The notes: generated by a model not told the origin, from the letters alone. 61,108 nt of DNA from Thermoplasmata archaeon (GCA_030037875.1 JASHPV010000089.1:1-61108), one strand, 5' to 3'. Numbered from the stretch's first letter, positions 1-21,698 are shown. Made by a program: numbers and translations.

Positions 1-1179
1 GGCTCGATCGATAACCTGATCTTCTACGCCGGGGCCGTTCGGACGCTGGACGCGAAGAGCCCCCAAGAGTTCCTCGGAGATGGGACGACCATCTTCCGAC
101 GGGAACCCGTCGGCGTGGTCGGCTCGATCACGCCGTGGAACTATCCGTTCATGATGGCGGTCTGGAAGGTCGGACCGGCGTTGGTGACCGGCAACACGGT
201 CGTCCTCAAGCCCGCAAGTTGGACCCCTTTGACCACTCTCGAACTGGGCAAGGCGTTCACGGAAGCCGGGCTTCCGGCCGGCGTACTGAACGTCGTGACT
301 GGCCCAGGGCCAGAGGTCGGGGACGAGCTGTGCCGCAACGCGAAGGTCGACATGGTCTCCCTTACCGGGGACACCGCGACCGGAAAGAAGGTCATGGAAG
401 CGGCGAGCAGCACCGTGAAGCGCGTGCAGCTCGAGCTGGGGGGCAAGGCGCCGTTCGTTGTCTTCGAGGACGCGGATATCCCCGCCGCCGTGGAAGGAGC
501 CATCGTCGGCGGCTACGTGAACGGGGGCCAGGACTGCACGGCGGCGACCCGGATCATCATCCACCAGTCGGTCCGCGAGAAGTTCGAGAAGGGGCTCCTA
601 GAGCGGGTCAAGCAGGTCCGCGTCGGCGACCCCGCTTCCCGGTCCACCGACCTGGGTCCGCTCGTCCACGCGAGCCACCAGAAGAAGGTGCTCGATTGGG
701 TGGAGGAGGGCAAGCACGAGGGAGCGAAACTGCGGATCGGCGGGACCGAAGCCGGGGGGAAGCTCAAGCAAGGGGCCTTCGTCAACGCCACCGTCTTCGA
801 CCAGGTGGCGCCGGACATGGAGATCGCCCAGCGGGAGATCTTCGGGCCGGTCCTGGACGTGATCGAGTTCGAGAAGTTCGACGACGCCATCGAAATCGCC
901 AACGGAGTGGACTACGGTCTGGCCGGCAGCGTGTGGACCCAGAACGTTCGCACGGCGCTGCGTGCGGCGAACGCCCTGCGGTTCGGGGACGTGTGGGTGA
1001 ACGACCACCTGCCGCTGGGCTCGGAGACGCCCCACGGCGGTTTCAAGCAATCCGGCTTCGGGAAGGACCTCGGCACGGATTCATTGAACGACTACACGGT
1101 CGTGAAGAACCTCTACATCGACCTCACGGGACAGGCGCGCAAGGGTTGGCACTACACGGTCTACGGCGACCCGGCCTAG
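1..1179 (+). CDS. Aldehyde dehydrogenase, gamma-aminobutyraldehyde-dehydrogenase-like (5' end cut by window edge)
   Basis: Frame 1 is open from base 1. Motifs ITPWNYPFMMAVWKVGPAL, ELGGKAP and catalytic-Cys GQDCTAATR resemble PatD/YdcW-type ALDHs. Confidence 0.9.
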   Translation, partial: GSIDNLIFYAGAVRTLDAKSPQEFLGDGTTIFRREPVGVVGSITPWNYPFMMAVWKVGPALVTGNTVVLKPASWTPLTTLELGKAFTEAGLPAGVLNVVTGPGPEVGDELCRNAKVDMVSLTGDTATGKKVMEAASSTVKRVQLELGGKAPFVVFEDADIPAAVEGAIVGGYVNGGQDCTAATRIIIHQSVREKFEKGLLERVKQVRVGDPASRSTDLGPLVHASHQKKVLDWVEEGKHEGAKLRIGGTEAGGKLKQGAFVNATVFDQVAPDMEIAQREIFGPVLDVIEFEKFDDAIEIANGVDYGLAGSVWTQNVRTALRAANALRFGDVWVNDHLPLGSETPHGGFKQSGFGKDLGTDSLNDYTVVKNLYIDLTGQARKGWHYTVYGDPA

Positions 1180-1200
1180 GACCCGCCGGCGCAGGGAGTC

Positions 1201-2679
1201 ATGGCGTCGGCCGAGTCGGGGGAAACGGGTCTCCTCTTCATCGGCGGCAACTGGGTTCCGTCCCGGTCCGGCCGCTGGCAAGAGGTCGACGACCCCTCCA
1301 CGGGCCGTCGGCTCGGCCGGGTGTCCGTCGCCTCCCGGGAAGAAGCCTCGGCCGCCGTGGACGCGGCCGCCGCGGTCGAAGAGTCCTGGGGCTCCACCCC
1401 GATCCACGAGCGGGCCCGACTGTTGCGTGCCCTCTCGGACCGACTCGCGGCGGACAGCGAGGGAATGGCCCGGTTGATCGCGCAAGAGGTGGGAAAGCCG
1501 ATCGTCGATGCTCGGGTCGAGGCCGGACGGGCGGTCACGGTCTACCAGCTCGCCGCCGACGAAGCCCGCCACCTGACGGGAGAGTCCTTCCCGGCCGATG
1601 CGTACGCCTACCCGGCGGGCAACGAGCGACGGTTCTTGTTCTCGGTCCGAGACCCGATCGGCGTCGTCGTCGCGATCAGTCCGTTCAATTTCCCTCTCAA
1701 CCTGCTTTCCCATAAAGTGGCTCCCGCGCTCGCCGCGGGCAATCCGGTCGTGATCAAGCCCACCAGCTCGGCCCCGCTCACGGCCCTCAGGCTCGCCAAG
1801 CACGCGGACGCCGCAGGCTTTCCCCGAGGGGTCGTGAATGTGGTCGTGGGCCCGGGCGGCGAGGTCGGCGATACGCTGGTCGAGCATCCTCGCACCCGGC
1901 TCGTGACGTTCACCGGCTCCACGTCGGTGGGTAAGAGCATAGCCGAGAAGGCCGGACGTCACGCGAAGCGGGTGATCTTGGAAATGGGAGGACTGGACCC
2001 GTTCATCGTGCTCGACGATGCTCCGCTCGACGTGACCGTAGCGGCCGCGGTGCGCGGTGCCTTCGGATACTCGGGCCAGGTCTGCACGGCGTCCAAGCGG
2101 CTGCTGGTCTCGGACGCGGTCGCCGACCGATTTGCCCGGGCCCTGACCGAGCGCGCGGGGAAACTGAAGGTGGGACCGGCGCTTTCGGAGGACACTCAAG
2201 TGGGCCCGGTCATCGACTCCGCGGCGCTGGACCGAATGGACCGGCTCGTCGGCGATGCGGTGTCCCACTCGGCCAAGGTCCTTCTCGGGGGACAGCGCGC
2301 CTCTGAGCTCGCCCCGGGTTACTTCTACCGACCGACGGTCCTCGATGACGTTACCCCTGAATCGAAGATCGCGCAAGAGGAGCCGTTCGGTCCGGTCGCC
2401 CCCATCCTGCGATTCCGCGACCTCGACGAGGCGGTCCGGATCGCCAACGGAACCCCCTACGGGCTCCAGGCGGCGGTGTACACGAACGACATCAAGAGCG
2501 CGTTCGCCATCGCGAAGCGGATCCGGGCGGGCGGCGTCCACATCAACGACCCTACCTCGCTCCGGTGGGACGCGCTGCCCTTCGGCGGCGTGAAAGAGAG
2601 CGGCCTCGGGCGCGAGGGGCTCCGGTACGCGATGGAAGAAATGACCGAGGTCAAGCTGATCTCGGTCAACTACGGCTGA
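1201..2679 (+). CDS. Aldehyde dehydrogenase family protein (succinate-semialdehyde/lactaldehyde DH-like)
   Basis: 492-aa ORF with ATG start 22 nt after the previous stop. Motifs FNFPLNL, LEMGGLDP and GQVCTASKR (catalytic Cys). Confidence 0.9.
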   Translation: MASAESGETGLLFIGGNWVPSRSGRWQEVDDPSTGRRLGRVSVASREEASAAVDAAAAVEESWGSTPIHERARLLRALSDRLAADSEGMARLIAQEVGKPIVDARVEAGRAVTVYQLAADEARHLTGESFPADAYAYPAGNERRFLFSVRDPIGVVVAISPFNFPLNLLSHKVAPALAAGNPVVIKPTSSAPLTALRLAKHADAAGFPRGVVNVVVGPGGEVGDTLVEHPRTRLVTFTGSTSVGKSIAEKAGRHAKRVILEMGGLDPFIVLDDAPLDVTVAAAVRGAFGYSGQVCTASKRLLVSDAVADRFARALTERAGKLKVGPALSEDTQVGPVIDSAALDRMDRLVGDAVSHSAKVLLGGQRASELAPGYFYRPTVLDDVTPESKIAQEEPFGPVAPILRFRDLDEAVRIANGTPYGLQAAVYTNDIKSAFAIAKRIRAGGVHINDPTSLRWDALPFGGVKESGLGREGLRYAMEEMTEVKLISVNYG

Positions 2680-2712
2680 GCGCGAGATCCTGCCATCGGG
2701 AGTGGAGCCCGA

Positions 2713-4275
2713 ATGTACGACGTCGTGATCATCGGGGGAGGGCATAATGGCCTCACCGCGGCGGCCTACTTGGCCCGGGGCGGGGCCAGGGTCGTCGTGC
2801 TGGAGCGGCGCCCCATCGTCGGAGGCGCCTGCGTTACGGAGGAGCCGTGGCCGGGCTTCCGCATCAACACCTACGCCTACCTCGCCGGGATGCTGAGCGC
2901 GAAAGTGATCGACGAGCTACGGTTGTCCGAGTTCGGTTATCGAACCATTCCGCATGACCCGGAAGGGTTCATTCCCTTCCCCGATGGCCGGTCGCTCACG
3001 GTGTGGGCCGACACGGCCCGGACCCAGAAGGAGATCGCGCGATTTTCTGCCCGAGATGCGGAGGCCTACCCCCGGTACCTCCAGCATTGGGCGGAGATCC
3101 TGAAGCTCCTTGAGCCGATCCTCGGCGGCAGTCCGCCCTCTTTACGAGAACTGACCGAGCGGTTCCGGGGCCCCGAGTACGAGCGATTGCTCCGCGACCT
3201 GGTCCTGCGGAGCGCAGAGGATTTTCTCTCCGAATGGTTCGAGTCGGAAGAGGTCAAGGCCGCCCTGGGGTTCAGTGCGTGCGTCGGGGCGTTCACCAGC
3301 CCCCGCCGGCCGGGAACGGCATACGTGCTGGCGCACAACAGCGTGACCGAGCTCGGAGGGCGTGCGGGGGCGTGGGGATTCGCCGTGGGAGGCATGGGGC
3401 GGACCACCGAGGCCCTCGCGCGGGCCGCTCAAGGGTTAGGGGCCGAAATTCGGACCGGCGTCGAGGTTCGGTCGCTGCTCGTCGAAGCCGGCCAGGTTCG
3501 CGGGGTCCAGACCACCGATGGCCACCGGGTCGAAGCGAGAGCGGTGGCCTCGGGGGTCGACATCAAGCAGACGCTACTGGGACTCGCGCCGGCCGACTCC
3601 GTTCCGCCAGAAGTCGCGCGTCAGGTTCGGAGCTTCAAGACCTACGCCACGACGCTCAAGTTCAACGCCGCGCTCCGCCGCCTGCCGCGCTTCACTGCCC
3701 AACCCGAAGTGCCGGGCCCGCATCATCAAGCCTCGATCACGATAGGTCCCTCGTTGGCGTACCTCGACCGAGCCTACGCGATGGCCGCGAGCGGCCAGCT
3801 TTCGGACCCGCCGTTCGCCGAGATATTGTTCCAGAGCGCCGTCGACCCTTCGGTCGCGCCCCCGGGTCAGCATACCATGACGTGCTCCGTCAAGTACGCG
3901 CCTCGGGAGCTCGTCGGAACCTCCTGGTCGGACCATCGGGCCGCCGCCGCGGAACTCGTCCTGTCGACCTTGGAGGAGTACGCTCCGGACATCCGCGAGG
4001 TCGTGAAGCACGCCCAGGTCGTGACCCCGGAGGACATCGAGACCACACTGGGCATGACCGGCGGCAGTTGTTTTCATGGAGACCTGACGCCCGACCAAAT
4101 GTTCTCGATGCGTCCGTTTCCCGGCGCAAGCGGGTACCGTCTCCCGATCCCCGGTCTGTACCTCTGCGGCTCGTCGGCCCATCCGGGCGGCGGCGTCACG
4201 GGCGTGCCGGGGCGGAACGCGGCCCAGGTCATCCTGGCCGATTTACATCGGGCGGGAGCCCCGCCTGCGGGCTAG
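2713..4275 (+). CDS. FAD-dependent oxidoreductase, phytoene-desaturase/PYROXD2-like (paralogue 1)
   Basis: N-terminal dinucleotide fold YDVVIIGGGHNGLTAAAYL..LERRPIVGGACVTEE. Colinear similarity to 4335-5933 and 10032-11621 along the full length. Confidence 0.85.
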   Translation: MYDVVIIGGGHNGLTAAAYLARGGARVVVLERRPIVGGACVTEEPWPGFRINTYAYLAGMLSAKVIDELRLSEFGYRTIPHDPEGFIPFPDGRSLTVWADTARTQKEIARFSARDAEAYPRYLQHWAEILKLLEPILGGSPPSLRELTERFRGPEYERLLRDLVLRSAEDFLSEWFESEEVKAALGFSACVGAFTSPRRPGTAYVLAHNSVTELGGRAGAWGFAVGGMGRTTEALARAAQGLGAEIRTGVEVRSLLVEAGQVRGVQTTDGHRVEARAVASGVDIKQTLLGLAPADSVPPEVARQVRSFKTYATTLKFNAALRRLPRFTAQPEVPGPHHQASITIGPSLAYLDRAYAMAASGQLSDPPFAEILFQSAVDPSVAPPGQHTMTCSVKYAPRELVGTSWSDHRAAAAELVLSTLEEYAPDIREVVKHAQVVTPEDIETTLGMTGGSCFHGDLTPDQMFSMRPFPGASGYRLPIPGLYLCGSSAHPGGGVTGVPGRNAAQVILADLHRAGAPPAG

Positions 4276-4305
4276 ACCCGGGGCCCCCGTTCCTCGAGCC
4301 GCGGA

Positions 4306-4312
4306 TTAAATA
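4306..4312 (+). promoter_or_regulatory. TATA-like box (TTAAATA) upstream of paralogue 2
   Basis: The only AT-rich heptamer in the 59-nt GC-rich spacer. Its centre is about 26 nt upstream of GTG 4335, which fits a leaderless archaeal transcript. Confidence 0.3.
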
Positions 4313-4334
4313 GCGGGACCGGGCTGCCCCGCGC

Positions 4335-5933
4335 GTGTCCTCGTATGATGTGATCATCATCGGCGGCGGCCACAATGGGCTCGTAGCGGCGGGGTACCTC
4401 GGAAAAGCCGGAGCCAAGGCCCTCGTTCTCGAGCGACGACCGATCGTCGGCGGCGCCGCCGTCACCGAGGAACCTTGGCCGGGGTACCGCATCAACACGT
4501 TCTCGTACGTCGCGGGCCTTCTGCGCCCACAGATCGTCGATGACCTGGAACTGAGTTCCTACGGCTATGAGACGATCCTGTACGACCCGCAATCCTTCGT
4601 CCCCTTCCCGAACGGCACGTCGCTGAGCCTATGGAACGACACGGAAAAAACGCAGAAGGAGATCGCTAAGTTTTCCGCCAAGGACGCGGCGATCTACCCA
4701 AAGTACGAAGAGTACTGGGACAATGTTCTGGACCTCGTCGAGCCCTTGTTGCTGGCGCCACCGGTCCCGCTGCCAGAACTCGTGGGGATGTTCGAGGGGA
4801 CACAGGCCGAGGAGCTCGTGCGCGAGCTGTTCCTTCTCAGCGCCTGGGATTTCCTGGACGAGTGGTTCGAGAGCGACGAGGTCAAGATCAGTTTCGCGAC
4901 CAACGCGGTGATCGGCGAGATGTGCGGGCCCCGTACTCCTGGGACCGCCTACGTGCTCGCCCACCATAACATCGGAGTGCTCGACGGTCAGCGCAAGGTA
5001 TGGGGATTCTCCAAGGGAGGGATGGGCCGGATCTCCGAAGCCCTGGCCGCGTCGGCCCGTCATCACGGGGTCGAGATCCGGACCGGCGTGGGAGTGCGCC
5101 AGATTCTGCTGCAGAACGGAAAGGCCGTCGGAGTCGAGACGGCGACGGGGGAACGGATCCACGCCACCGCGGTCGCCTCCAACCTCGATGTGAAACGCAC
5201 GCTGCTCGAGCTGACCCCTCCGGACGCGGTGCCCGCCGACATCCGCCGGCAGGCGGAACGGTTCCGGACCCGCGGGGCGGCGCTCAAATTCAATGCCGCG
5301 CTCGATGACCTGCCGGAGTTCACGGCGGCTCCCGGGCGCCCGGGTCCGCATCACCGGGGAGCGATCGAGATCGCTCCGTCCATGGAGTATCTCGAGAAGG
5401 CGTTCGACGACGCCAAGTACGGAAACTTCTCCCAGCACCCGTTTCTCGACATCGAGTTCCAGAGCGCCTCGGACCCCACGATGGCGCCCCCGGGGAAGCA
5501 CGTGATGACGTGCTTCGTGATGTACGCTCCTCGCGAGCTATCGGGTACCACGTGGTCGGAGTTCAAGCCGGCCGCCGGCGAGCGGTGCCTGGACACGATC
5601 GCCGAGTACGCGCCGGATATCCGGAAACAGGTCCGGCACTGGCAGATCATCTCGCCCGAAGATATCGAGACCACTCTCGGGATGTCCGGCGGGAATATCT
5701 TCCAGGGTGACATCACCCCCGACCAGATCTTCTCCTTCCGACCCTTGCTCGGATGGGCGAACTACCGGACACCGGTCCCGGGATTGTACTTCTGCGGCTC
5801 CACCGCCCACCCCGGGGGCGGGGTCACCGGGGCACCGGGCTACAACGGCGCCCATGCCCTTCTGGAGGACTTGCCAAAACTGAAGAAAGGCGAGTTCCCC
5901 CGGCCCGGGGTGGGCCCGGGCGGAACAAGTTAA
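4335..5933 (+). CDS. FAD-dependent oxidoreductase, phytoene-desaturase/PYROXD2-like (paralogue 2)
   Basis: GTG start. SYDVIIIGGGHNGLVAAGYL..LERRPIVGGAAVTEEPWPGYRINTFSYVAGLLRPQIVDDLEL. C-terminal GSTAHPGGGVTGAPG is shared with the paralogues. Confidence 0.85.
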   Translation: MSSYDVIIIGGGHNGLVAAGYLGKAGAKALVLERRPIVGGAAVTEEPWPGYRINTFSYVAGLLRPQIVDDLELSSYGYETILYDPQSFVPFPNGTSLSLWNDTEKTQKEIAKFSAKDAAIYPKYEEYWDNVLDLVEPLLLAPPVPLPELVGMFEGTQAEELVRELFLLSAWDFLDEWFESDEVKISFATNAVIGEMCGPRTPGTAYVLAHHNIGVLDGQRKVWGFSKGGMGRISEALAASARHHGVEIRTGVGVRQILLQNGKAVGVETATGERIHATAVASNLDVKRTLLELTPPDAVPADIRRQAERFRTRGAALKFNAALDDLPEFTAAPGRPGPHHRGAIEIAPSMEYLEKAFDDAKYGNFSQHPFLDIEFQSASDPTMAPPGKHVMTCFVMYAPRELSGTTWSEFKPAAGERCLDTIAEYAPDIRKQVRHWQIISPEDIETTLGMSGGNIFQGDITPDQIFSFRPLLGWANYRTPVPGLYFCGSTAHPGGGVTGAPGYNGAHALLEDLPKLKKGEFPRPGVGPGGTS

Positions 5934-5957: not shown

Positions 5958-7295
5958 ATGCCGGCCGGCCCCTCTTCCCACCGTCGAAAGAAGTCGGTGG
6001 GGACCGATTACTGGGCGCGGTACCAGCAGCTGTTCCCTCGCTACTTCTGGTCGGAAGAAACCCGTCTCGCGAGCGTCATCGTGGCCGACGCGAAGGGGTC
6101 GACGGTCCGGGACACGTCCGGCAAGAGCTACATCGACCTCACGAGCCAGTGGGCGACGAACAACCTAGGAAACGTTCCGCCGGAGGTCCTCGGCGTGACG
6201 GTCGAGGCGCTTCGTCGGTACGGGTTCCTGACCTACTTCATGACCCCGCATATTCCGATGATCGAGCTGGCGGAGCGGCTGATCGAGAACCGGCCCTCCC
6301 CGAATCTGTCCCGAGTGTTCCTGGAGCTCTCCGGCACCGGGGCCGCAGAAGGCGCGGTCAAGCACGCCGTCGAGGCGAGCCACCGACCGCTCATCCTCAG
6401 CTTCCTGGGGCAGTATCACGGTCTCTCGATCGGAACGAACCTCATCGGTAGCCTCAGCGCGCATGAACGGAGATATTGGGAAGCGTGGGGCGGCGGAGCG
6501 CTGCACGCGCCGTACCCGTTTCCGTACCGGCGACCCCGAGGGATGAGTCCGGAGGAATACGGGGACTGGGTCCTGGAGTACATCGAGGAACAGGTCGTGG
6601 GCCGGCAGGCGGAAGCCGACCGGATCGCCGGGGTGATCCTGGAACCGGTCGCCTGCGAGGCCGGTATCTGGATTCCCCCGGCGAAGTTCGTTCGGGGGCT
6701 CGCCAAGCTCTGCGAGGCCCATGACTGGTTCTTCATCGATGACGAGGTCGAGACCGGCCTCGGGCGAACGGGGAAGATGTGGGGGATCGAGCACTTCGGA
6801 GTAGCCCCGGACCTGATGGCGATCGGGAAGGGGATCTCGGGCGGGTTGATGCCCATCGGCGCGGTGATGGGGACGGAGGAGGTCATGGGCGAGGCGATAG
6901 TCGCGGCGGGGACGACCTTCGCGGGCCATCCGGCGGCGTGCGCTGCCGCCACCAAGACCCTCGAGATCCTGCGGCGAGACAAGATTCCGGAACGCTCGGC
7001 TCGACTCGGCGCCGCGGCGCTCAAACGGATGAAGGAATGGGAACGCCTACCGAACGTCGGCGAAGTGAGAGGGTTGGGTCTCTGCCTCGCGGTCGAGCTG
7101 GTCCGGGACAAGCGGTCCCGAAAGGCCTTCTCCGAGTTGGGCCGGCGCATTTTCTTCGACTGCGTCGAGCACGGCACGATCCCGCTTTGGAACTACGGTG
7201 ACCATGTCGTCCGCATCGAACCTCCATTGACGATCGAGCCAGAAACTCTCGACGCCGGCCTGGACGCGGTCGAGTCCGCCCTCCGACGCGGCTGA
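5958..7295 (+). CDS. Class-III (omega) aminotransferase, PLP-dependent
   Basis: DDEVETGLGRTGKMWG and the PLP-lysine region AIGKGISGG. 445 aa. Confidence 0.9.
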   Translation: MPAGPSSHRRKKSVGTDYWARYQQLFPRYFWSEETRLASVIVADAKGSTVRDTSGKSYIDLTSQWATNNLGNVPPEVLGVTVEALRRYGFLTYFMTPHIPMIELAERLIENRPSPNLSRVFLELSGTGAAEGAVKHAVEASHRPLILSFLGQYHGLSIGTNLIGSLSAHERRYWEAWGGGALHAPYPFPYRRPRGMSPEEYGDWVLEYIEEQVVGRQAEADRIAGVILEPVACEAGIWIPPAKFVRGLAKLCEAHDWFFIDDEVETGLGRTGKMWGIEHFGVAPDLMAIGKGISGGLMPIGAVMGTEEVMGEAIVAAGTTFAGHPAACAAATKTLEILRRDKIPERSARLGAAALKRMKEWERLPNVGEVRGLGLCLAVELVRDKRSRKAFSELGRRIFFDCVEHGTIPLWNYGDHVVRIEPPLTIEPETLDAGLDAVESALRRG

Positions 7296-7449
7296 ACGCG
7301 GGTCCGCCGTACTCCGGGTCCCCGAACCGACCGGGGATTTCCGTCTTGGAATCCGTTCCGAATCGGTCACTTTCGGCCCAGTTCCGGTTCCGGTTTCTGT
7401 CCGAAACGGGTTATTTCTGTACATAATCGACATTTTTCACATCTAAAAT

Positions 7450-7481
7450 GGTCTATTCAGCGCTCAAACGTGACATAGACC
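7450..7481. repeat. Inverted repeat GGTCTAT-N18-ATAGACC
   Basis: Perfect 7-nt arms at 7450-7456 and 7475-7481, inside the unusually AT-rich 339-nt spacer upstream of the Rieske genes. Confidence 0.5.
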
Positions 7482-7603
7482 ATAGGACCCCCGAGACAGG
7501 CTAACAGCAGCCCGGCATTGCACTTTGGCTCGTGGGGTCAATACAAAGGATAGAGCATCGAACTGTATCGAAATACGGGGTAAACACCCCCTCTGGCGCC
7601 AAG

Positions 7604-7610
7604 TTTTTAT
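7604..7610 (+). promoter_or_regulatory. TATA-like box (TTTTTAT) for the Rieske oxygenase operon
   Basis: Centre is about 28 nt upstream of ATG 7635, and no Shine-Dalgarno lies between. This suggests a leaderless or near-leaderless mRNA. Confidence 0.35.
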
Positions 7611-7634
7611 GCGCAGGACGGTCTTCCTCCGATA

Positions 7635-13661: not shown

Positions 13662-13853
13662 GATAATCCCTCAGCGGGGCCGATAGGTTAAAGGGGGCCG
13701 CCGGTCCCCCGCGCGCAGGGGTTCGGTACTATTCCCACCCAAGGTGCGAAAGTCGTCCAAATCGGTTGCGGAGCCGTCGGACAAGTCATCGCTCGCCATC
13801 TCGCGGAAAGCTCGGCCATTCGGGAGCTGGCGCTTGCCGACCTGGACGGGCCG

Positions 13854-14927
13854 TTGGCCCAGACAGTAGCCCGGGGACTCCCAGGCGGCCGGGCCACCGG
13901 CGTCGCGATCGATGCCGGGGATGCCTCGGCCGTCGCTTCGTTCGTGAAGGGCGCCGACGTCCTCGTCAATGCCAGCCTTCCCCGGTTCAACAATACCCTC
14001 ATGACGGCCGCCCGCGAAGGCCACGCCGCGTACATCGACCTCGCCTCGGCCTCCAGCGACCCGTTCGTCGACGATGCCAAGTGGAAGGCCGCGGGCGTTC
14101 CCGCAATCATCGCGATGGGGGAGGACCCGGGACTGAGCAACGTGTTCGCTCGGTACGGCGCGGACCAGATGGACTCGGTCGATGCGATCCGGATCCGCGA
14201 TGGCGACACCGCGTCGAGCCCGGACTTTCCGTTCATCTGCCTGTTCAGCCCGGAGACCTTCATCGGAGAGACCCTGAATTCGTCGCGCATCTGGAGGAAC
14301 GGAGCGTACAGCGTCGTGCCGCCCTTCGGCGAGTTCGAGCAGTACGCCTTCCCGCCGCCGGTGGGGCCCCAGCCGGTCTACGAGGTCGATCATGAGGAGG
14401 TCGACACCCTCCCGCGGTACATCGGGAAAGGGGTCCAGTACGTCGATTTCAAGCTCGCGCTCGACGACCGGACGGTCCGGGTACTTCGCACATTCCAGGA
14501 CCTCCAGATCTTCGGGAACGACCGGCCGGACCGCGTGGCGGCCCGAAAGGCGATTCTCAACGTCATCCCGAAACCCGCGGACCTCACGGGCAAGGTCGAC
14601 GGCTCGGCAGCGCTCGTGGTCGAAGTGGACGGCTTGAAGGACGGCCACCATCGGCGCCTCCGGTTGTCGACGTTGATCAGCCACCGGGACGCCGCGAGCA
14701 AGTACGGCGCGACGGGAACGGCCTATCTGACCGGGACCGGGGGCGCAGTCGGAGCGCTGCTGTTGGCGACCGGCCAGGTCCGCGCGCCCGGGATGCACTC
14801 GCCCGAGACGCTCGACCCCGCCCCGTTCCTTCCCCTCTTGGCCGAACGCGGGGTCGCCGTCCACGAGGAGCGGCTCCCGGAGAAGGCGTCGTCCCGCAGG
14901 CAGGCGAGGAAGTCCCGGAAGCGCTAG
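13854..14927 (+). CDS. Saccharopine-dehydrogenase-like NAD(P)-binding oxidoreductase (N-terminus unresolved)
   Basis: VLVNASLPRFNNTLMTAAREGHAAYIDLAS and downstream Sacchrp_dh-like regions. The in-frame upstream sequence (13749-13853) encodes the expected Rossmann motif KVVQIGCGAVGQVIARHL but has no canonical start (see finding). Confidence 0.75.
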   Translation: MAQTVARGLPGGRATGVAIDAGDASAVASFVKGADVLVNASLPRFNNTLMTAAREGHAAYIDLASASSDPFVDDAKWKAAGVPAIIAMGEDPGLSNVFARYGADQMDSVDAIRIRDGDTASSPDFPFICLFSPETFIGETLNSSRIWRNGAYSVVPPFGEFEQYAFPPPVGPQPVYEVDHEEVDTLPRYIGKGVQYVDFKLALDDRTVRVLRTFQDLQIFGNDRPDRVAARKAILNVIPKPADLTGKVDGSAALVVEVDGLKDGHHRRLRLSTLISHRDAASKYGATGTAYLTGTGGAVGALLLATGQVRAPGMHSPETLDPAPFLPLLAERGVAVHEERLPEKASSRRQARKSRKR

Positions 14928-14952: not shown

Positions 14953-16005
14953 TCACGACGTCGGGGCCGCGGAGCCCTTCCCGATCTCGCCGGCCGAGGC
15001 GGCGGTGACCGCCAGGGCTCTACGGCTCCGGGGGTCGAGGATATCGCGGAGCCCGTCTCCGAGGAGACTGAACGCCAGGACCGTCACGAAGACGGCTAGC
15101 GCGGTGAAGAGCGTGGGCCACGCGTCGAACGCGAGGTCGGCCTGGTACGAGGAGATCATGGAACCCCACTCCGCGGTGCCCGGGGTGAACCCAATGCCCA
15201 GGAACGTGATCGTCGAGAAGGTGATCAGCACGCTCCCGACATCGAGCGTGTAGTACACGATCAAGGGCTCGGTGATGTTCCGGATGATATGGCGGAAAAG
15301 GATCCCCCGGTCCGAGAGTCCCGCGGCCTTGGCGGCGACGATGAAGGGCGCTCCCTTCACCGCCAGCACCTCCCCGCGCACGAGGCGAACATAGAACGGC
15401 CACCACGTGGCCGCGATCGCGAACAGCACGACGGTGAACCCTCGTCCCAGAACCTCCGCGATCGCCAGCGCGAGCACGAGACTCGGGAAGGCCAGGAAAA
15501 TGTCCGTCACCCGTAGGATGACGACGGAGACGAGTCCTCCCGCGGTCCCCGGGGTGTCCCAGAACCCGGCGATGAGCCCGAGGATCCCCCCGACCGCGAG
15601 TGAGAAGAGTGTGATGCTGAGCCCGATGCTCAGGTCGATCGGCGTCGCAGCAAGAACCCTCGAGAAGACGTCCCGACCGGCCTCGTCGGTGCCGAACGGA
15701 TGGGCGAAGGACGGAGGGAGGTACTTGTTTCCGGAGGGGATGATGATGGAATACGGGACGATCGTCGTGGGGTGACCGATGAGCCCCGACAGGAGCGGCA
15801 CCAGCCAGACGAGGAGACCGGTGATGCAGATGATCGCCACGATGACGAACCCTATCAGTGTGAGCGGGTTCGCCTTCAGTACGGCGTATAGGGTCGCCCA
15901 TTGGTCCCGTCGGGAGGCCCGACGGTGGACGGCGGCCTCGATCGCTGCAGCGAGCTCTTCCCGGCTCTTCGGAGATTCCGCCGAAAGGTCGCCCGGCTCC
16001 GCCAT
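14953..16005 (-). CDS. ABC transporter permease (DppC/OppC-like)
   Basis: Multi-TM protein with FIVAAKAAGLSDRGILFRHIIRNITEPL (EAA-loop region). The start abuts the stop of the upstream permease. Confidence 0.9.
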   Translation of the reverse strand: MAEPGDLSAESPKSREELAAAIEAAVHRRASRRDQWATLYAVLKANPLTLIGFVIVAIICITGLLVWLVPLLSGLIGHPTTIVPYSIIIPSGNKYLPPSFAHPFGTDEAGRDVFSRVLAATPIDLSIGLSITLFSLAVGGILGLIAGFWDTPGTAGGLVSVVILRVTDIFLAFPSLVLALAIAEVLGRGFTVVLFAIAATWWPFYVRLVRGEVLAVKGAPFIVAAKAAGLSDRGILFRHIIRNITEPLIVYYTLDVGSVLITFSTITFLGIGFTPGTAEWGSMISSYQADLAFDAWPTLFTALAVFVTVLAFSLLGDGLRDILDPRSRRALAVTAASAGEIGKGSAAPTS

Positions 16006-17028
16006 CTAGCGCCACTCCACCCGCGGGTCAAGGACGCCGTACAGTATGTCGGCCGCCAGGTTCGCTACGACGACCCCGATCGAGAACACGATCACGGTTC
16101 CCACGACGCCGGTGAAGTCGTAGCTCTCGATCGATTCGTACGCGTAGTATCCGATACCGGGCCATTGGAAGATCTCCTCGATGACGACCGTTCCCGAGAG
16201 CAGATAGCCGGCGGTGAGCCCGAGCACCGTGACAGTGGTGATCAGCGCGTTTCGCAGGGCGTGCTTGTACAGAACCCAGACCTCGGTGAGTCCCTTCATC
16301 CGCGCGGTGCGCACGTATTCCAGGGGCAGCACCTCGAGCATGGAGGCCCGGGTCATCCGGGTCGCGATTCCGAGGTTAAAGAACGCCAGCGCGATGGCGG
16401 GCAGCGACAGGTGCTCGAGGGCGTTGAGGGTCCATGGAATGTTACCGGCGATCAATGCGTCGACCACCGACATGTGAGTGTACTGAGGGAACGGAGGGGT
16501 TCCCGTGAACGCCCCCGTCGGAGCGATATGGAGCGCCGGAGCAACGAGGATGGCGAGAACCAGCCCTCCTACGTAGGTCGGCACGGCCCAGCCACTCAGG
16601 TAGAACACCCGGACCAGGTGGTCGGCCCAGCGGCCGTTGCTGTTCGCCGCGATGACGCCAAGCGGGATGCCGACGACCACCATCAAGAACAGCGCCGCGA
16701 TGACGAGCTCGAACGTGGCGGGGAAGTACTCCCCGATGAGGGTCAGGACCGGTTGCTGGTTCACCTGGTCTATGCCCCAGTTCCCCGTCAGCAAGGTCTC
16801 GAGGTACTGGTACAGCTGAACGTAGATCGGGTGGTTCAGCCCGAAGAACGATACGCAATGCTCGTACGCGAGCTTCCCCGCGTGGGGCCCGACCCACGCG
16901 ATACAGGGGTTCGACGTCGAAAGATGGCTAACGACGAAGGTAACGACGATGGCACCGAACAGCACGAGCGCCAGTTGGACCATGCGCTTGGCGATGAACA
17001 CGACCAGGTCGCTGAGGCTGCGTCCCAC
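16006..17028 (-). CDS. ABC transporter permease (DppB/OppB-like)
   Basis: GTG start. FIAKRMVQLALVLFG N-terminus and YVRTARMKGLTEVWVLYKHALRNALI. Confidence 0.9.
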   Translation of the reverse strand: MGRSLSDLVVFIAKRMVQLALVLFGAIVVTFVVSHLSTSNPCIAWVGPHAGKLAYEHCVSFFGLNHPIYVQLYQYLETLLTGNWGIDQVNQQPVLTLIGEYFPATFELVIAALFLMVVVGIPLGVIAANSNGRWADHLVRVFYLSGWAVPTYVGGLVLAILVAPALHIAPTGAFTGTPPFPQYTHMSVVDALIAGNIPWTLNALEHLSLPAIALAFFNLGIATRMTRASMLEVLPLEYVRTARMKGLTEVWVLYKHALRNALITTVTVLGLTAGYLLSGTVVIEEIFQWPGIGYYAYESIESYDFTGVVGTVIVFSIGVVVANLAADILYGVLDPRVEWR

Positions 17029-17204
17029 TGGTACCCCCCCGGCCGACGCCGACCGTTCGGTAGCGTCGGTTAGGGCTACGCCTCGAAAGTCCGCTGACTA
17101 CAAATAAGCCCCGACGGGCACTTGTTGAGGCCTGGCGTTCGAGGCAAGTTCACGCCGTTCGGACTGAGGCTATTTCGCGTTCGCCGAACGAGCCCCCGCG
17201 GCGC

Positions 17205-17293
17205 CCGGTTTATGGCGTCTGTCGCGAACGCCCGTCGTGAGCTCGTCGTACGGTTCGACGGCCCGTGAAACGGCAGGGTGCGCCGGTTTATGG
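17205..17293. repeat. Two copies of CCGGTTTATGG, 78 nt apart
   Basis: Copies at 17205-17215 and 17283-17293. Extended match GCGCC(C)GGTTTATGG. The second copy overlaps the aminotransferase stop codon. Confidence 0.4.
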
Positions 17294-18784
17294 GAGATTG
17301 CGCCCGGGCGGAGGCGGGCTTTGCGCCGGGTGGTGCGGCGGAATCAGGCCGGGCTCCAGGGGTGGCGCCGGTTGAGGCCGCGCGGGGGAGATGGTAGAGG
17401 GCGGCACGGGACTCTTCTCCGCCGGCGCGGCATCCAAGTTCGACAGGGCCTCCTCGAACACTGCGAGTCCCCGCTCGAGGAGAGGGTCCTCGATCGTGAG
17501 CGGGGCCATGAACCGGAGGGCGTTGTCGTAGCTCCCGCAGGTGTGCATCAACAGCCCGTTCAGGAAGAGTTCGCGCCGCATCGCCTTCGCGCGCTCGTCC
17601 CACGGAGTCTTCCGGGCCGCGTCCTTCACGAACTCGACTCCGATCATGAACCCTTTCCCGCGCACGTCGCCGATCGAGGGATGCGTCCGGGCATACTCCT
17701 GGAACCGGGCCAGGACCTGCTTGCCCCGACGCGCCGCCAGAGCGATCCAGTGTTCCTCGCGCAGGACCTTGAGGACCTCGGTTCCGACGGCCAGTGCCAA
17801 GGGGTTGCCGCGGTAGGTTCCTAGGTGGAAACCGCGGGGCAGCTCCTTGACGAGGTCATTCCGATACGCCACCATGGAGGCCGGTATTCCGCCCCCGATG
17901 GTCTTGGCGATACAGATGATGTCGGGAGTGACGTTCCAGTTCTCCACCGCCCAGAACTTGCCGGTCCGTCCCAGCCCCGTTTGGACTTCGTCGGCGATGA
18001 GGAGGAGGTCGTGCTCGTCGCAGAACTCCCGGAGCGACGGCAGGAAATCGTCCGGCGGCACCACGTAGCCCCCCTCCCCGAGGATCGGCTCGACCAGGAC
18101 GGCCGATGCCCGGTCGACCCCCGAGTAGGGGTCGTTGAGAAGATGTTCCATGTACCGGATCACGCCCTGGGCGCTGTCCGGGCTGTTCAGGACAGGCCGA
18201 TACGGGTTCGGGAACGGGATTCGTATCACCGAAGCTCCGTGGAACGAACTGGTCTCTCGGTACCGACGTCCCCCGGTCAGGTTTACTGCGCCGCCGTGGA
18301 CGCCATGATAGGCGCCGGAAAACGCAAAGGTTCCGGAACGGCCCTTGGCGTAGTCGGCCAGGCTCACGGCCGCCTCGATGGAATCTCCACCGGTGATCGT
18401 GAAGAGCACCTTGGCATGGTTCCGGAGCGTGCCGGGCAGCGACGCGGTCAGCTGCTCCAGGAACTCGACCCGGGCTTCGGTGGGGACTTCGAGTGAATGC
18501 CAGATTTTCTCGGCCTGGCGCTGGAGGGCCGCCACGAGCCGCGGGTGCCGGTGGCCCAGATTGAGAACCGAGATTCCCGCGACCCAATCGATGAAGCGGT
18601 TGCCATCCAAATCCTCAATGGTCGAGCCCCGCGCTTCGCGGATGGCCATCGGGAAGTACTTCGGATAGGCGACGGCATCGGTCTCGAGTCGGGCTTGCGT
18701 TTCGAGCAGTGCCCGGGACTTGGGCCCGGGCGGTGGCGTCACGATTTTCGGAGCGTCCGGGAAGCTCAACCAGTTCTCCGCCAT
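17288..18784 (-). CDS. Class-III (omega) aminotransferase with proline-rich C-terminal tail
   Basis: ADEVQTGLGRTGKFWA and PLP-lysine region CIAKTIGGG. The last roughly 55 aa are P/A/S-rich. Confidence 0.9.
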   Translation of the reverse strand: MAENWLSFPDAPKIVTPPPGPKSRALLETQARLETDAVAYPKYFPMAIREARGSTIEDLDGNRFIDWVAGISVLNLGHRHPRLVAALQRQAEKIWHSLEVPTEARVEFLEQLTASLPGTLRNHAKVLFTITGGDSIEAAVSLADYAKGRSGTFAFSGAYHGVHGGAVNLTGGRRYRETSSFHGASVIRIPFPNPYRPVLNSPDSAQGVIRYMEHLLNDPYSGVDRASAVLVEPILGEGGYVVPPDDFLPSLREFCDEHDLLLIADEVQTGLGRTGKFWAVENWNVTPDIICIAKTIGGGIPASMVAYRNDLVKELPRGFHLGTYRGNPLALAVGTEVLKVLREEHWIALAARRGKQVLARFQEYARTHPSIGDVRGKGFMIGVEFVKDAARKTPWDERAKAMRRELFLNGLLMHTCGSYDNALRFMAPLTIEDPLLERGLAVFEEALSNLDAAPAEKSPVPPSTISPARPQPAPPLEPGLIPPHHPAQSPPPPGRNLP

Positions 18785-18899: not shown

Positions 18900-19754
18900 A
18901 TGGCAGAACTGGGTCCCCGAGTGGACGTTCACGTGCACCCGAGCCGGTATTCCCGGCACGGAGCCGCCTTCGCCGAAAAGAACCGAATCGAGTACACCCC
19001 CTCCGGCCTACTCGGGGAAATGGACGCGGCCGGAATCGGCTGGGGCGTCTTCCTGTGTCCGCGCCTGGCGCCCACCCTCGAAGCGGGTCTGGAGAACGTG
19101 TCCGAGGTGGCTTCGGCCAGCGGCGGCCGACTGCTTCCGACGGGAACGGTGGACCCGACGCGGGGAGAAGCCGAGGTGGCCCACGCGGTCGATCTCTGGT
19201 CGCGGAACCGGCCCCGTCTCCGGGGGATCAAGCTCTACCCGGGGTACCTCCCTTTTGATGTGACGGACCCGCGGCTCGAGCCGGTATACCGGTGGGCGGA
19301 GCGCGAACGGGTTCCGGTCTGGGTCCACCAGGGCGACACCGCGGACCCGGACGGATTGATCCGGTTCGCCCGGCCGATCTTCCTGGACGAAGTGGCGGTA
19401 CGATGGCGCTCGGTCCGGTTCGTCCTCTGCCATGTCGGCAATCCCTGGATGGAGGAGGCGGCGGAGGTGACGTACAAGAATGCCAACGTCTACACCGACA
19501 CCTCCGGGCTTCTGAATCCGTTCGCCGAGCACTACAACCTTCAGATCCGACGGATGCGAACGCGTCTCCACCACGCGATCTTGGCCGTCGGCGACGTGGG
19601 GAAGGTCCTCTACGGGTCCGATTGGCCGATCAGCTCGATCGTCGACGCGGTAGGATTGGTCGAAAGCCTCGACCTGTCGCGACCGGACAAGGAACGCATC
19701 CTGGGAGACAATGCGCGGGAGCTGCTGGGGCTTCCCGGCAGCGGTTCCGGGTGA
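18900..19754 (+). CDS. Amidohydrolase-2 / TIM-barrel metal-dependent hydrolase (paralogue 1)
   Basis: ATG 18900 gives MAELGPRVDVHVHPS (HxH metal motif). VWVHQGD and CHVGNPW are present. The track ORF start at 18720 overlaps the divergent aminotransferase. Confidence 0.8.
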   Translation: MAELGPRVDVHVHPSRYSRHGAAFAEKNRIEYTPSGLLGEMDAAGIGWGVFLCPRLAPTLEAGLENVSEVASASGGRLLPTGTVDPTRGEAEVAHAVDLWSRNRPRLRGIKLYPGYLPFDVTDPRLEPVYRWAERERVPVWVHQGDTADPDGLIRFARPIFLDEVAVRWRSVRFVLCHVGNPWMEEAAEVTYKNANVYTDTSGLLNPFAEHYNLQIRRMRTRLHHAILAVGDVGKVLYGSDWPISSIVDAVGLVESLDLSRPDKERILGDNARELLGLPGSGSG

Positions 19755-19788
19755 AAAGGTTCGTAAACTCCGTCGACTAGCGAGCCGT

Positions 19789-20643
19789 GTGCCGGTTCTC
19801 CCCCTAGGGCGCCGCGTCGATGTGCATGTGCACCTGAGCCGGTACTGGCCGGACCTGGCGCGAAACTCGTACCGGTCCGGCCTCGACTTCACCGTCCCCT
19901 CGCTGCTGCGCGAACTGGACGCTCAGTCGGTCGGATTCGCCGTGCTCCTCCAACTGTACCTGTCCCCCAGCCCGGCCGAAGTGCTTCGAGAGGGGGAGGA
20001 GATGTTCACCAAGAGTGGGGGCCGGCTCCTGCGCACCGTCACCGTGGACCCCACCCAGGGAGAAGCCGCCGTCCACGAGACCCTGGAGATGTGGAAGCGG
20101 GCCCGCGACCTCGTGGCAATCAAACTCTATCCGGGGTACCGGTCGTTTTACCCTCATGATGCGCGCCTCCATCCCGTCTACGAGTTCGCACACAAGGCGC
20201 AGATCCCGGTGATGATCCACCAGGGAGACACTCTCGACCCCAACGGTCAGCTGAAGTTCGCCCGCCCACTCGAAGTGGACGAGGTCGCGGTCCGGTTCCG
20301 TGACGTGCGGTTCGTCCTTTGCCACCTAGGGAACCCGTGGATCGAGGAAGTCGCCGAAGTCGTCTACAAGAATTCCAACGTCTACACGGATACTTCCGGC
20401 CTACTCGCGAACCCGGCGGTGCCCTACTTCCGGGAAATGATGGGAAGGGCCCAGCGACGGCTCACCAACGCGATCGCCGCGATGGGGGATGCCCGCCGGG
20501 TACTGTACGGCTCCGATTGGCCCCTCGAGTCCATTGAGACGGCCGTGGGATTGATCACCGGCCTCGACCTCCCCGCGGAGGACAAGGAGCTGATCTTGGG
20601 AGAAAATGCGCGGGCGCTGTTCCGGATCGACGTTTCGGACTGA
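19789..20643 (+). CDS. Amidohydrolase-2 / TIM-barrel metal-dependent hydrolase (paralogue 2)
   Basis: VDVHVHLS, VMIHQGD and CHLGNPW are colinear with 18900-19754. The start is either GTG 19789 or ATG 19711 (44-nt overlap with the previous gene). Confidence 0.75.
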   Translation: MPVLPLGRRVDVHVHLSRYWPDLARNSYRSGLDFTVPSLLRELDAQSVGFAVLLQLYLSPSPAEVLREGEEMFTKSGGRLLRTVTVDPTQGEAAVHETLEMWKRARDLVAIKLYPGYRSFYPHDARLHPVYEFAHKAQIPVMIHQGDTLDPNGQLKFARPLEVDEVAVRFRDVRFVLCHLGNPWIEEVAEVVYKNSNVYTDTSGLLANPAVPYFREMMGRAQRRLTNAIAAMGDARRVLYGSDWPLESIETAVGLITGLDLPAEDKELILGENARALFRIDVSD

Positions 20644-20771
20644 CCACGTCCCTCCATGCCTGCGCGGAAGAAACGTTACGCGCGGCGCAACCCGCGTCGC
20701 CGTCCGAGCCTTGATATCGGTTCCCGCGTCCGGTACGTCGCTACGCACCGGTGAAGGACCGGTCCCTTTCT

Positions 20772-21698
20772 ATGTCCCGTACTTTCGAGGCGGCGCTGTC
20801 GCGAGCGCCGGTGTTCTTTGAGCCGGTGCCCCCGTCCCTTCGGACCCGGCCGGACCGGGTCGATTCGTACTTCCAGGAGCTGGCCACGCGCCTCCAGTCC
20901 ATCGAATCGCTGGATGCCATCGACGTTCCGGAACTGATTGACGAGAATCATGACGGCCGACCGTACTATCGGACGGCGGACCCACGCGAGATTGGCCGAC
21001 GGCTGGCGGAGCTAGTCCAGCGGCCCGTCGTGGTCAACAAGGTAGTCGCTCACCTTCCCTCCCAAGCGGCCTTGATCGAATGGACCCGCCAAACGCTCGA
21101 AGGGGGCATCCGCCACGTGGTCCTGGTCGGAGGATCCAGTCGCTACATCCCCTATCCGGGTCCCCAGGTGATCGAGGCCGACCGGGCCTGCGCGAGCCTG
21201 CTCCGAGAGCAAGGCGGACACCTGGGAAACATTGCGATTCCCCAGCGGCAAGGGGAAGCGCACCGCATGTTGGCCAAGACGCGGGCGGGGGCGTCGTTCT
21301 TCACCACGCAGATCTTGTTCGATAGTGAAAGTCTGCGACGCACCCTCCAAGAATACGACGCGCTCTGCCAGAAGGCTGGCGTTCCACCGGCGGCCGTACT
21401 GCTCAGCTTCGCGCCCCTGGCCGACGAGACCGACGCCGAGTTCGTCCGCTGGCTTGGAGCGGACATCCCGGAGGCGGCCGAGCGGTGGATACTGAACGGA
21501 GAGGAGACCTCGGCGGGGGATCGGGCCATCGAGCATGCGAGACGGGTTTGGGCCGACACGCGAACGGGTGCAGAAGCCGACGGACTCTCCCTCGCGCTCG
21601 GCGTGAACGTGGAGCAATTGACGCAGCGTCACCTCGACGTGGCCCTGCGAATGCTCACCGAACTCTCCGACACGGTTCGGCAACGTTCGGTGGCCTAG
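20772..21698 (+). CDS. Methylenetetrahydrofolate-reductase-like (MetF family) protein
   Basis: KTRAGASFFTTQILFDSESL resembles the MetF GADFxxTQxxFD signature within a beta/alpha-barrel-sized protein. Alternative GTG start at 20751. Confidence 0.6.
   Translation: MSRTFEAALSRAPVFFEPVPPSLRTRPDRVDSYFQELATRLQSIESLDAIDVPELIDENHDGRPYYRTADPREIGRRLAELVQRPVVVNKVVAHLPSQAALIEWTRQTLEGGIRHVVLVGGSSRYIPYPGPQVIEADRACASLLREQGGHLGNIAIPQRQGEAHRMLAKTRAGASFFTTQILFDSESLRRTLQEYDALCQKAGVPPAAVLLSFAPLADETDAEFVRWLGADIPEAAERWILNGEETSAGDRAIEHARRVWADTRTGAEADGLSLALGVNVEQLTQRHLDVALRMLTELSDTVRQRSVA

Follow-up and report, generated by a model that had tools for sequence, protein, structure and literature searches.

A conserved Rieske oxygenase and flavoprotein gene island of Thermoplasmata, a candidate unit for the uptake and catabolism of N-alkylated amines

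What compound is consumed by the products of a dense cluster of metabolic genes in a Thermoplasmata genome, and do these genes belong together? The cluster occupies positions 1-21698 of a 61,108-nucleotide stretch of DNA from a Thermoplasmata archaeon (GCA_030037875.1 JASHPV010000089.1:1-61108), the whole of which is called the window. An initial annotation described the cluster as one amine-type catabolic island, which is borne out by conservation of the family set in distant relatives. From sequence comparison we estimate a probability of roughly 55% that the island is a conserved uptake-and-catabolism unit of peat and soil Thermoplasmata for a positively charged N-alkylated amine. Such a compound would most likely be quaternary ammonium or N-methylated, and possibly polyamine-derived.

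The G+C content of the window is 63-69% and spurious long open reading frames (ORFs) are common; genes were chosen by third-position G+C and family matches. Window ORFs were scanned with Pfam and NCBIfam models, and NCBIfam scores are given below as score/curated cut-off in bits. The scans identified 16 genes in 1-21698, not the 18 or so first proposed, and found every enzyme type that had been named in its place. They encode two aldehyde dehydrogenases (ALDH_a and ALDH_b), three flavoproteins of the CrtI fold (FAD_1 to FAD_3), two class-III aminotransferase-fold proteins (AT_1 and AT_2), two Rieske oxygenase alpha subunits (RO_1 and RO_2), a family-5 solute-binding protein (SBP), two permeases, an enzyme of the saccharopine dehydrogenase (SDH) fold resembling carboxyspermidine dehydrogenase (CASDH), two Amidohydro_2 proteins (AH_1 and AH_2), and a remote relative of the methylenetetrahydrofolate reductase (MTHFR) fold. 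Paralogues within the window are 55-58% (flavoproteins), 44% (Rieske proteins), 54% (amidohydrolases), 39% (ALDHs) and 32% (aminotransferases) identical. In the Pfam scan a DNA methylase, a HAD hydrolase and a thermopsin-like protease mark the right-hand end of the island.

The window was compared with related loci, labeled L001, L088 and so on. The nearest homologues with a named source are all from Thermoplasmata or 'Methanobacteriota' metagenome-assembled genomes, one of them Ca. Lutacidiplasmatales, and peat and soil metagenomes contain the stretch almost letter for letter. Relatives with an RO_1 82-89% identical keep the gene order, including the right part (AT_2, both amidohydrolase genes and the MTHFR-like gene) and the flanking methylase; at this distance the shared order could be plain collinearity. 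In a deeper clade, whose RO_1 is 57-61% identical, FAD_2 (71-77% identical), AT_1 (62-71%), the SDH-like gene, the SBP gene, RO_1, RO_2, FAD_3 and both permease genes are found together in an order and on strands unlike those of the window. Two oligo_HPY ATPase genes accompany this core wherever the locus extends far enough. On deep-clade contigs a block consisting of ALDH_a (80-83% identical), ALDH_b (~72%), AT_2 (64%), AH (55-62%) and the MTHFR-like gene (~60%) lies directly beside the core. In L091 and L092, ALDH_b orthologues adjoin ALDH_a and MTHFR-like orthologues come after AT_2-AH, while AT_2 orthologues of distant relatives (64-71% identical) are divergently paired with an Amidohydro_2 gene. 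Because this block and the rearranged core lie side by side there, the whole set of families has been kept through the changes of gene order, the MTHFR-like gene included, and the clustering is not chance. The flavoproteins follow RO_1 in archaea: one or more flavoprotein paralogues lie within 10 kb at 38/57 archaeal RO_1-family loci, and two or more at 25/57, versus 1/23 bacterial loci with one or more in the flank. Synteny is thus conserved in relatives, and because the same families stay together, rearranged, at 57-61% Rieske identity, the island appears to be a functional unit.

A different view of the same loci is that a flexible region has collected unrelated modules for peptide import, amino-acid racemization or transamination, aldehyde oxidation and an orphan oxygenase, with no common substrate. 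Gene order does vary between clades, and accessory genes (an arginase-family gene, an extra ALDH, a TnpB-like gene) come and go. Some relatives hold only sub-sets: ALDH-ALDH-RO-SDH-ALDH in L002, RO with AT_2, AH and ALDH in L015, L021, L026 and L039, and RO with three flavoproteins in L050-L058. But these sub-sets always pair a Rieske gene with amine-handling enzymes, a similar combination is found in a bacterium on a Shinella plasmid, and nine families remain within about 30 kb despite extensive rearrangement. A mosaic of this kind is quite unlikely.

The Rieske proteins are the best guide to the type of substrate. Group V Rieske oxygenases, which act on quaternary ammonium compounds, are defined by a bridging Glu and a Cys-x-x-Cys pair beside the iron site (PMC7948474, PMC10952381); the pair flanks the first iron-binding His (PMC10952381). 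Subgroup Va, comprising the C-N cleaving enzymes CntA, choline monooxygenase and OxyBAC, has, two positions ahead of the Glu, an aromatic pi-cation residue, Tyr203 in CntA (PMC7948474). The demethylating subgroup Vb does not have this residue (PMC7948474, PMC10952381).

In comparisons with the PDB the closest solved structure for both RO_1 and RO_2 is carnitine monooxygenase CntA, which aligns over the full length (8e-46 for RO_1 with 6y8j). Stachydrine demethylase-type structures are next, whereas aromatic dioxygenases align over the Rieske domain only. The Rieske [2Fe-2S] motif C-x-H...C-x-x-H is present in RO_1 (C90/H92/C111/H114) and RO_2 (C101/H103/C122/H125). RO_1 residues E208, H211, H216 and D342 align with CntA E205, H208, H213 and D323, with chain numbering offset by 20, and RO_2 likewise has the bridging Glu and the His/His/Asp iron site. 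The Cys-x-x-Cys pair occurs as E-C-Y-H-C in both proteins (C209/C212 in RO_1) and is invariant in the family alignment. The active-site stretches are V-E-N-Y206-S-E208-C-Y-H211-C-A-P-I-H216 in RO_1 and V-E-N-A-N-E-C-Y-H-C-P-G-V-H in RO_2. Tyr206 of RO_1 aligns with CntA Tyr203, and this position is aromatic in 80/80 RO_1-family ORFs of the loci (Y in 57, F in 23). RO_2, whose gene always adjoins RO_1, has Ala217 at this position, as do 19/19 archaeal orthologues, and so does not have the Va residue. Neither the window nor any of the inspected related islands encodes a Rieske beta subunit. RO_1 and RO_2 carry the sequence hallmarks of group V-type Rieske oxygenases, and RO_1 those of the Va type. 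This signature agrees with the early suggestion of an N-substituted amine as the substrate. Rieske oxygenases had also been called uncommon in archaea, which is not the case in the Thermoplasmata lineage, where homologue searches found this type in abundance.

Could the island simply convert choline or glycine betaine to glycine? RO_1 would then be a choline monooxygenase, ALDH_a a betaine-aldehyde dehydrogenase (BADH), RO_2 a GbcA-like demethylase, and the flavoproteins dimethylglycine and sarcosine oxidases. The Va/Vb-like split of RO_1 and RO_2 fits the order of steps, there would be one flavoprotein for each of three methyl groups, BADH ranks second among the families matched by ALDH_a, and many homologues are labeled 'glycine betaine catabolism A' by JGI. 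A survey of soil Thermoplasmata reported enrichment of 'betaine catabolism' KEGG orthologues, gbcA among them, with K00479 and K00130 both enriched, and did not describe the island (PMC9038741). But the GbcA model NF058607 gives only 208.2 for RO_1 and 199.0 for RO_2 against a cut-off of 670, each match broken into two stretches, and on these scores RO_1 and RO_2 were rejected as GbcA orthologues. In overall sequence RO_2 also resembles CntA more than Stc2, a binder of the OpuAC/ProX type is missing, and this route leaves no role for the conserved CASDH-like enzyme, both aminotransferases, ALDH_b or the amidohydrolases. We consider it very unlikely.

The names given by databases suggest something else again, namely carotenoid desaturation or ketolation by the flavoproteins and aromatic-ring dioxygenation by the Rieske proteins. 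The best NCBIfam names for the flavoproteins are indeed CrtO and the crtI family, and Rieske entries read 'aromatic ring-hydroxylating dioxygenase subunit alpha'. The scores, however, are far below the cut-offs: FAD_1 to FAD_3 reach 289-337/1000 for CrtO and 131-151/238 for crtI_fam (289 and 151 for FAD_1), and the best PDB match of FAD_3, CrtI 4dgk, is at 1e-16. The scanned window ORFs include no phytoene synthase, cyclase or other carotenoid gene. The carotenoid assignment was rejected on these grounds, and the aromatic-dioxygenase assignment because of the full-length CntA alignment and the group V motifs; the missing beta subunit also speaks against it. This explanation is hardly credible, and with it goes the outcome that the initial annotation had named as fatal to its proposal.

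What, then, might the flavoproteins do? FAD_1 is 55-57% identical to FAD_2 and FAD_3, all three match the Pfam Amino_oxidase and DAO models, and the family is hugely expanded in these archaea under generic database names. Their neighbors elsewhere are more specific. In Chloroflexota, relatives of RO_1 (44-48% identical) adjoin two genes of the GcvT family and those of an ABC importer whose binder is of the SBP_bac_8/6/1 type. In sister Thermoplasmata loci an RO_1-family gene occurs with three flavoprotein paralogues and an ORF that BLASTP identified as diverged GcvT-like. On plasmid p1 of Shinella zoogloeoides (L093, 326618-346189) the genes are, in order, Rieske, aminotransferase, ABC importer, TetR, flavoprotein, flavoprotein, GcvT and NADH:flavin oxidoreductase; one flavoprotein is 44% identical to FAD_3 and adjoins the second flavoprotein gene and the GcvT-family gene. 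GcvT-family proteins are folate-binding partners of known N-demethylases. Such neighbors link both families, that of RO_1 and that of the flavoproteins, with methyl-amine chemistry.

The initial annotation likened the three flavoproteins to PYROXD2 and CrtI. The human PYROXD2 locus is a metabolite quantitative trait locus for urinary trimethylamine and plasma dimethylamine (PMC3169529), and the metabolite literature links human PYROXD2 with N-methyl-lysine and N-methyl-pipecolate. Tentatively, the island and the bacterial FAD-FAD-GcvT modules may together define a new route for quaternary or N-methylated amines in which CrtI-fold flavoproteins of this putatively PYROXD2-like family would serve as tertiary- and secondary-amine N-dealkylating dehydrogenases after a group V Rieske step; we hold this as a possibility on the doubtful side. 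As a cultured organism, S. zoogloeoides is a tractable model for the flavoprotein family.

The enzymes acting further downstream bear on the carbon skeleton. The best NCBIfam model for ALDH_a is PRK13473, aminobutyraldehyde dehydrogenase, followed by BADH. The copy cut by the window edge scores 503.7 with PRK13473 and the full-length orthologue in L001 (93% identical) 580.6/615, so that the closest family is just under its cut-off; the TIGR03374 equivalog gives 434/909. ALDH_b scores 484/650 for lactaldehyde dehydrogenase and 419/646 for succinate-semialdehyde dehydrogenase (SSADH). AT_1 reaches no cut-off (247/507 for GABA aminotransferase), and its closest matches in the PDB are 9wrf, an amino-acid racemase of broad specificity, and then 7vno, an archaeal aminotransferase. 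AT_2 is likewise under every cut-off, with 348/671 for diaminobutyrate (DABA) aminotransferase, 309/507 for GABA aminotransferase and 233/612 for PatA, and matches GABA aminotransferases in the PDB at about 1e-74. The claim that the two aminotransferases and two ALDHs are exactly the PatA/PatD/GabT/GabD set was too strong, since none attains a curated cut-off and AT_1 is nearest a racemase.

The SDH-like protein aligns end to end with 4ina (3e-35) and carboxyspermidine dehydrogenase 8deb (2e-34), and scores 100.6/800 with the carboxynorspermidine synthase model NF043000. The enzyme type had been recognized correctly, but the gene is on the + strand and has no canonical start codon: there is no ATG, GTG or TTG between the in-frame stop at 13689-13691 and the Rossmann motif GCGAVG. 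L001 and L088 have kept the ATT at 13731, where the L088 annotation also places the start, and translation probably begins at this AUU. A long minus-strand ORF at 13671-14864 was rejected as a gene; it has no family match and overlaps the SDH-like gene.

Both amidohydrolases exceed the PF04909 gathering score of 26.4, family comparisons assigned neither to an Amidohydro_2 sub-family, and AH_1 is called as 284 aa in L086 and L087. For the MTHFR-like protein, the initial annotation holds at the level of fold or superfamily in profile searches; as a single sequence the protein is below the Pfam cut-offs (19.3/27 for MTHFR_2 and 18.2/24, in searches with PF02219 and PF19345). A profile of 29 homologues matches the uncharacterized PDB entry 3ijd at 9e-20 and MTHFR structures at 4e-5 to 4e-4 (7wmw 4e-5, 8bgr 3e-4), and a PF19345 match is precomputed for some homologues. 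The family is best regarded as a remote MTHFR-fold relative at that level only.

These enzymes give the plainest competitor its strength. In plain polyamine or diamine catabolism the substrate would be spermidine, norspermidine, homospermidine, putrescine, agmatine or a carboxy-polyamine and would bear neither a quaternary nor an N-methyl group. The flavoproteins would be polyamine oxidases, the Rieske proteins would cut protonated secondary amines, the CASDH-like enzyme would run in reverse, and a PatA/PatD/GabT/GabD-like route would lead to succinate. The proximity of the SDH-like protein to carboxyspermidine dehydrogenase, of the ALDH_a orthologue to aminobutyraldehyde dehydrogenase, of AT_2 to GABA, DABA and putrescine transaminases and of ALDH_b to SSADH all suit this idea, as do the Amino_oxidase matches of the flavoproteins. 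An agmatinase/formiminoglutamase-like arginase-family gene lies within the island of close relatives, and together with the CASDH-like enzyme it favors a polyamine-related skeleton. But both Rieske proteins carry the group V signature, and CntA converted quaternary ammonium analogues only, with dimethyl, monomethyl and primary analogues left unconverted (PMC7948474). In addition, the GcvT folate proteins beside relatives of RO_1 and the flavoproteins point to methyl removal, the SBP is of family 5 and not of the PotD/PotF type, and no curated polyamine-pathway cut-off is reached. A purely polyamine route is unlikely, and we favor an N-alkylated cationic substrate that may have a polyamine-like backbone.

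The SBP ORF is open from 11654 with a likely ATG at 11717; starting from M22 the protein has 637 aa, which matches the orthologue length called in L088. It resembles GsiB/NikA/HbpA-type binders weakly and has no close match to any characterized binder. A family-5 ABC importer had been proposed; the SBP and two permeases are there, but ORF scans found no ABC ATPase in the window. Relatives encode both oligo_HPY ATPases within the island. Because the L090 island (1-9842) continues about 10 kb to the left of ALDH_a, the window probably holds only part of the island. The left part of L090 encodes a third aminotransferase (542 aa), a fourth flavoprotein, a Cupin_2 protein, a second permease pair, two oligo_HPY ATPases and a second family-5 SBP.

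A route for an N-alkylated cationic amine can be proposed from family membership and gene context, on which all of its steps depend. The compound would be imported by the family-5 SBP and the Opp-type permeases, with ATPases that relatives encode farther left. RO_1, of group Va, would hold the cationic nitrogen through a pi-cation contact with Tyr206 and hydroxylate the adjacent carbon, whereupon the C-N bond would break to give an aldehyde and a smaller amine. The tertiary and secondary amines left over could be oxidized or dealkylated by RO_2 together with the three flavoproteins. The CASDH-like enzyme might cleave, or make, a secondary-amine link of the opine type. Primary amino groups would be taken off by the two class-III enzymes, which depend on pyridoxal phosphate (PLP), and the resulting aldehydes or aminoaldehydes would be turned into acids by the two ALDHs. 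The MTHFR-fold protein may handle released one-carbon (C1) units.

Several observations weigh against this proposal. The CASDH-like enzyme and the arginase-family gene of close relatives suit polyamine or guanidino compounds at least as well as a trimethylammonium compound. The nearest solved relative of AT_1 is a racemase, and family-5 SBPs are not the usual betaine binders. No CntB/GbcB-type reductase (Fer2/FNR) or ferredoxin partner was found in the scanned window ORFs or the inspected related islands, and no GcvT gene in the window; ORF scans of the rest of the window gave no reductase, ferredoxin, oligopeptide-type ATPase, GcvT, cupin or SRPBCC gene. A search for RNA sequencing runs holding the Rieske gene found none. 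Finally, because no island protein reaches a curated NCBIfam cut-off in the scans, we can only infer the specific activity of each.

Table 1. Features of the island in the window, with the evidence used to assign them.
Feature	Position	Strand	Evidence
ALDH_a, aminoaldehyde/betaine-aldehyde-dehydrogenase-like	1..1179, 5' end cut by window edge	+	Pfam Aldedh 484 bits
ALDH_b, succinate-semialdehyde/lactaldehyde-dehydrogenase-like	1201..2679	+	Aldedh 554 bits
FAD_1, CrtI/amine-oxidase-fold flavoprotein	2713..4275	+	Pfam DAO, Amino_oxidase, NAD_binding_8
FAD_2, paralogous flavoprotein	4335..5933	+	Pfam, NCBIfam, paralogue identity
AT_1, class-III aminotransferase-fold PLP enzyme, transaminase or racemase	5958..7295	+	Aminotran_3 283 bits
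Conserved intergenic region upstream of RO_1, probable promoter and operator	7375..7634	none	Conservation against relatives
RO_1, group V Rieske oxygenase alpha subunit, Va type	7635..8795	+	Pfam Rieske and Ring_hydroxyl_A
RO_2, paralogous group V Rieske alpha subunit, non-aromatic (Ala217)	8805..9983	+	Pfam Rieske and Ring_hydroxyl_A
FAD_3, paralogous flavoprotein	10032..11621	+	Pfam, NCBIfam, paralogue identity
Family-5 (Opp/Dpp/Nik-type) SBP	11717..13630	+	SBP_bac_5 167 bits
SDH-fold, carboxy(nor)spermidine-dehydrogenase-like, probable ATT start	13731..14927	+	Sacchrp_dh_NADP and Sacchrp_dh_C
ABC permease, second of pair	14953..16005	-	BPD_transp_1
ABC permease, first of pair	16006..17028	-	BPD_transp_1 and BPD_transp_1_N
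AT_2, class-III aminotransferase, GABA/diaminobutyrate-transaminase type	17288..18784	-	Aminotran_3 333 bits
AH_1, Amidohydro_2 metal-dependent hydrolase/decarboxylase-fold	18900..19754	+	PF04909 94.7 bits
AH_2, paralogous Amidohydro_2	19711..20643	+	PF04909 113.5 bits
Remote MTHFR-fold protein, candidate folate/C1 link	20772..21698	+	Profile search at fold/superfamily level

The spacer in front of RO_1 is itself conserved. It is 67-85% identical to relatives, versus 59-69% at third codon positions of RO_1, and contains the invariant blocks CAAAGGATAGAG, ATCGAAAT and GCGCCAAGTTTTTATG as well as TTCCG/CGGAA repeats. A TTTTTATG box lies ~27 nt ahead of the RO_1 ATG. The spacer is a probable promoter with operator sites. 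A structured RNA or riboswitch was considered and rejected: consensus folds are weak (-16 to -18 kcal/mol), the covariation term is unfavorable (+1.4 kcal/mol) with only 1-3 compensatory pairs, and there is no Rfam match.

Related islands contain genes that differ from those of the window. The arginase-family gene, absent from the window, lies between FAD_1 and FAD_2 in L001 (5694-6557), L003 and L090, and an extra ALDH gene is beside the permease genes in L001, L007 and L043. Inside the deep-clade island L084 a Cas12f1-like TNB (TnpB-type) gene (3835-4887) is found between the permease genes and a flavoprotein gene. L083 has three genes that recur in the deep clade, for an SRPBCC protein (Polyketide_cyc2, 14103-14558), a 452-aa amine-oxidase-fold protein (16882-18240) and a Cupin_2 protein (18299-18631), none of them in the window; they gave 15, 14 and 20 BLAST matches, respectively, some loci duplicating one record.

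Just right of the island, 23487-26804 (-) encodes a 1105-aa secreted-type protease with Thermopsin, NosD-like and PEGA domains, and a Pro-kumamolisin-type protease takes this place in one relative. Farther right are genes for two nitrogen-compound enzymes, a gamma-glutamyltranspeptidase (27578-29083, -) and a class-IV aminotransferase (34322-35278, -), whose position does not imply island membership. At 52057-53153 a tRNA-Lys(CTT) gene lies beside a deoxyhypusine synthase gene, followed by genes for a signal-peptide peptidase and aIF2-beta, an ordinary housekeeping context.

Soil and peat Thermoplasmata are abundant and uncultured, and their diet is largely inferred. The island suggests a specific and conserved ability to feed on cationic amines, for instance betaines, methylated amines or polyamines derived from plant and microbial necromass. 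With it the range of group V Rieske oxygenases reaches into archaea, and the Va-like RO_1 and non-aromatic RO_2 form a natural experiment on what decides between C-N cleavage and demethylation in such enzymes. The repeated association with a large family of orphan flavoproteins provides a concrete hypothesis for which cultured model bacteria exist. If the N-dealkylating flavoprotein route is true, it would be the first such pathway described in archaea, as far as we could find; if FAD_1 to FAD_3 are true PYROXD2 relatives, a function for the human orphan enzyme would become directly testable. A literature search found no paper describing this combination of enzymes, in keeping with the initial annotation, and the paper describing Lutacidiplasmatales mentions none of the island enzymes.

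How does the island compare with known systems? The E. coli PatA-PatD-GabT-GabD route also has two class-III PLP enzymes and two ALDHs, and in the island one ALDH is nearest aminobutyraldehyde dehydrogenase and the other SSADH-like. It differs in that no island member reaches the cut-off of its family and AT_1 is nearest a racemase, and the E. coli route is without the conserved core of Rieske, flavoprotein, CASDH-like and importer genes. The CASDH and carboxynorspermidine dehydrogenase (CANSDH) enzymes of alternative polyamine biosynthesis have the same two Pfam domains as the SDH-like protein and align end to end (about 1e-35). Unlike them, the SDH-like protein scores 100.6 against the 800 of the NCBIfam equivalog, has no carboxyspermidine decarboxylase gene nearby, is found in a catabolic context with an importer and ALDHs, and has two paralogues in the deep clade.

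The Shinella p1 module (MOE34_RS22980-22990), for which no characterized function was found, also places a Rieske protein, a class-III aminotransferase and an ABC importer near flavoproteins. Its Rieske protein is of a different type (about 30% identical, no Cys pair), and the module has GcvT, NADH:flavin oxidoreductase and TetR regulators but no CASDH-like gene or ALDH pair. The GbcAB-DgcAB-SoxBDAG pathway and Stc2 (group Vb) share with the proposed route a Rieske attack on a quaternary nitrogen, subsequent flavoprotein dealkylation and a folate-type C1 link, and RO_2, like Stc2 and GbcA, is without the aromatic residue. In contrast to that pathway, the island flavoproteins are CrtI-fold and not of the DgcA or sarcosine-oxidase types, the GbcA model gives 199-208/670, the window has no GcvT gene, and there are additional CASDH-like, aminotransferase and ALDH steps.

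The closest likeness is to CntAB and the other group Va enzymes, choline monooxygenase and OxyBAC. The Rieske motif, bridging Glu, Cys-x-x-Cys pair and His/His/Asp site are shared, as are the pi-cation aromatic residue in RO_1, the lack of a beta-subunit gene in the window and inspected islands, and an ALDH encoded nearby to take the aldehyde product. Unlike CntA, to which it shows no orthologue-level alignment or score, RO_1 has Ile338 for Phe319 and Trp335 for Tyr315 in the pocket, and no CntB-type reductase gene accompanies it in the window or inspected islands. RO_1 is paired instead, in an archaeon, with a second oxygenase, three flavoproteins, a CASDH-like enzyme and an Opp-type importer. 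The island is therefore of a known kind, Rieske-initiated amine catabolism, with a combination of enzymes that matches no characterized pathway.

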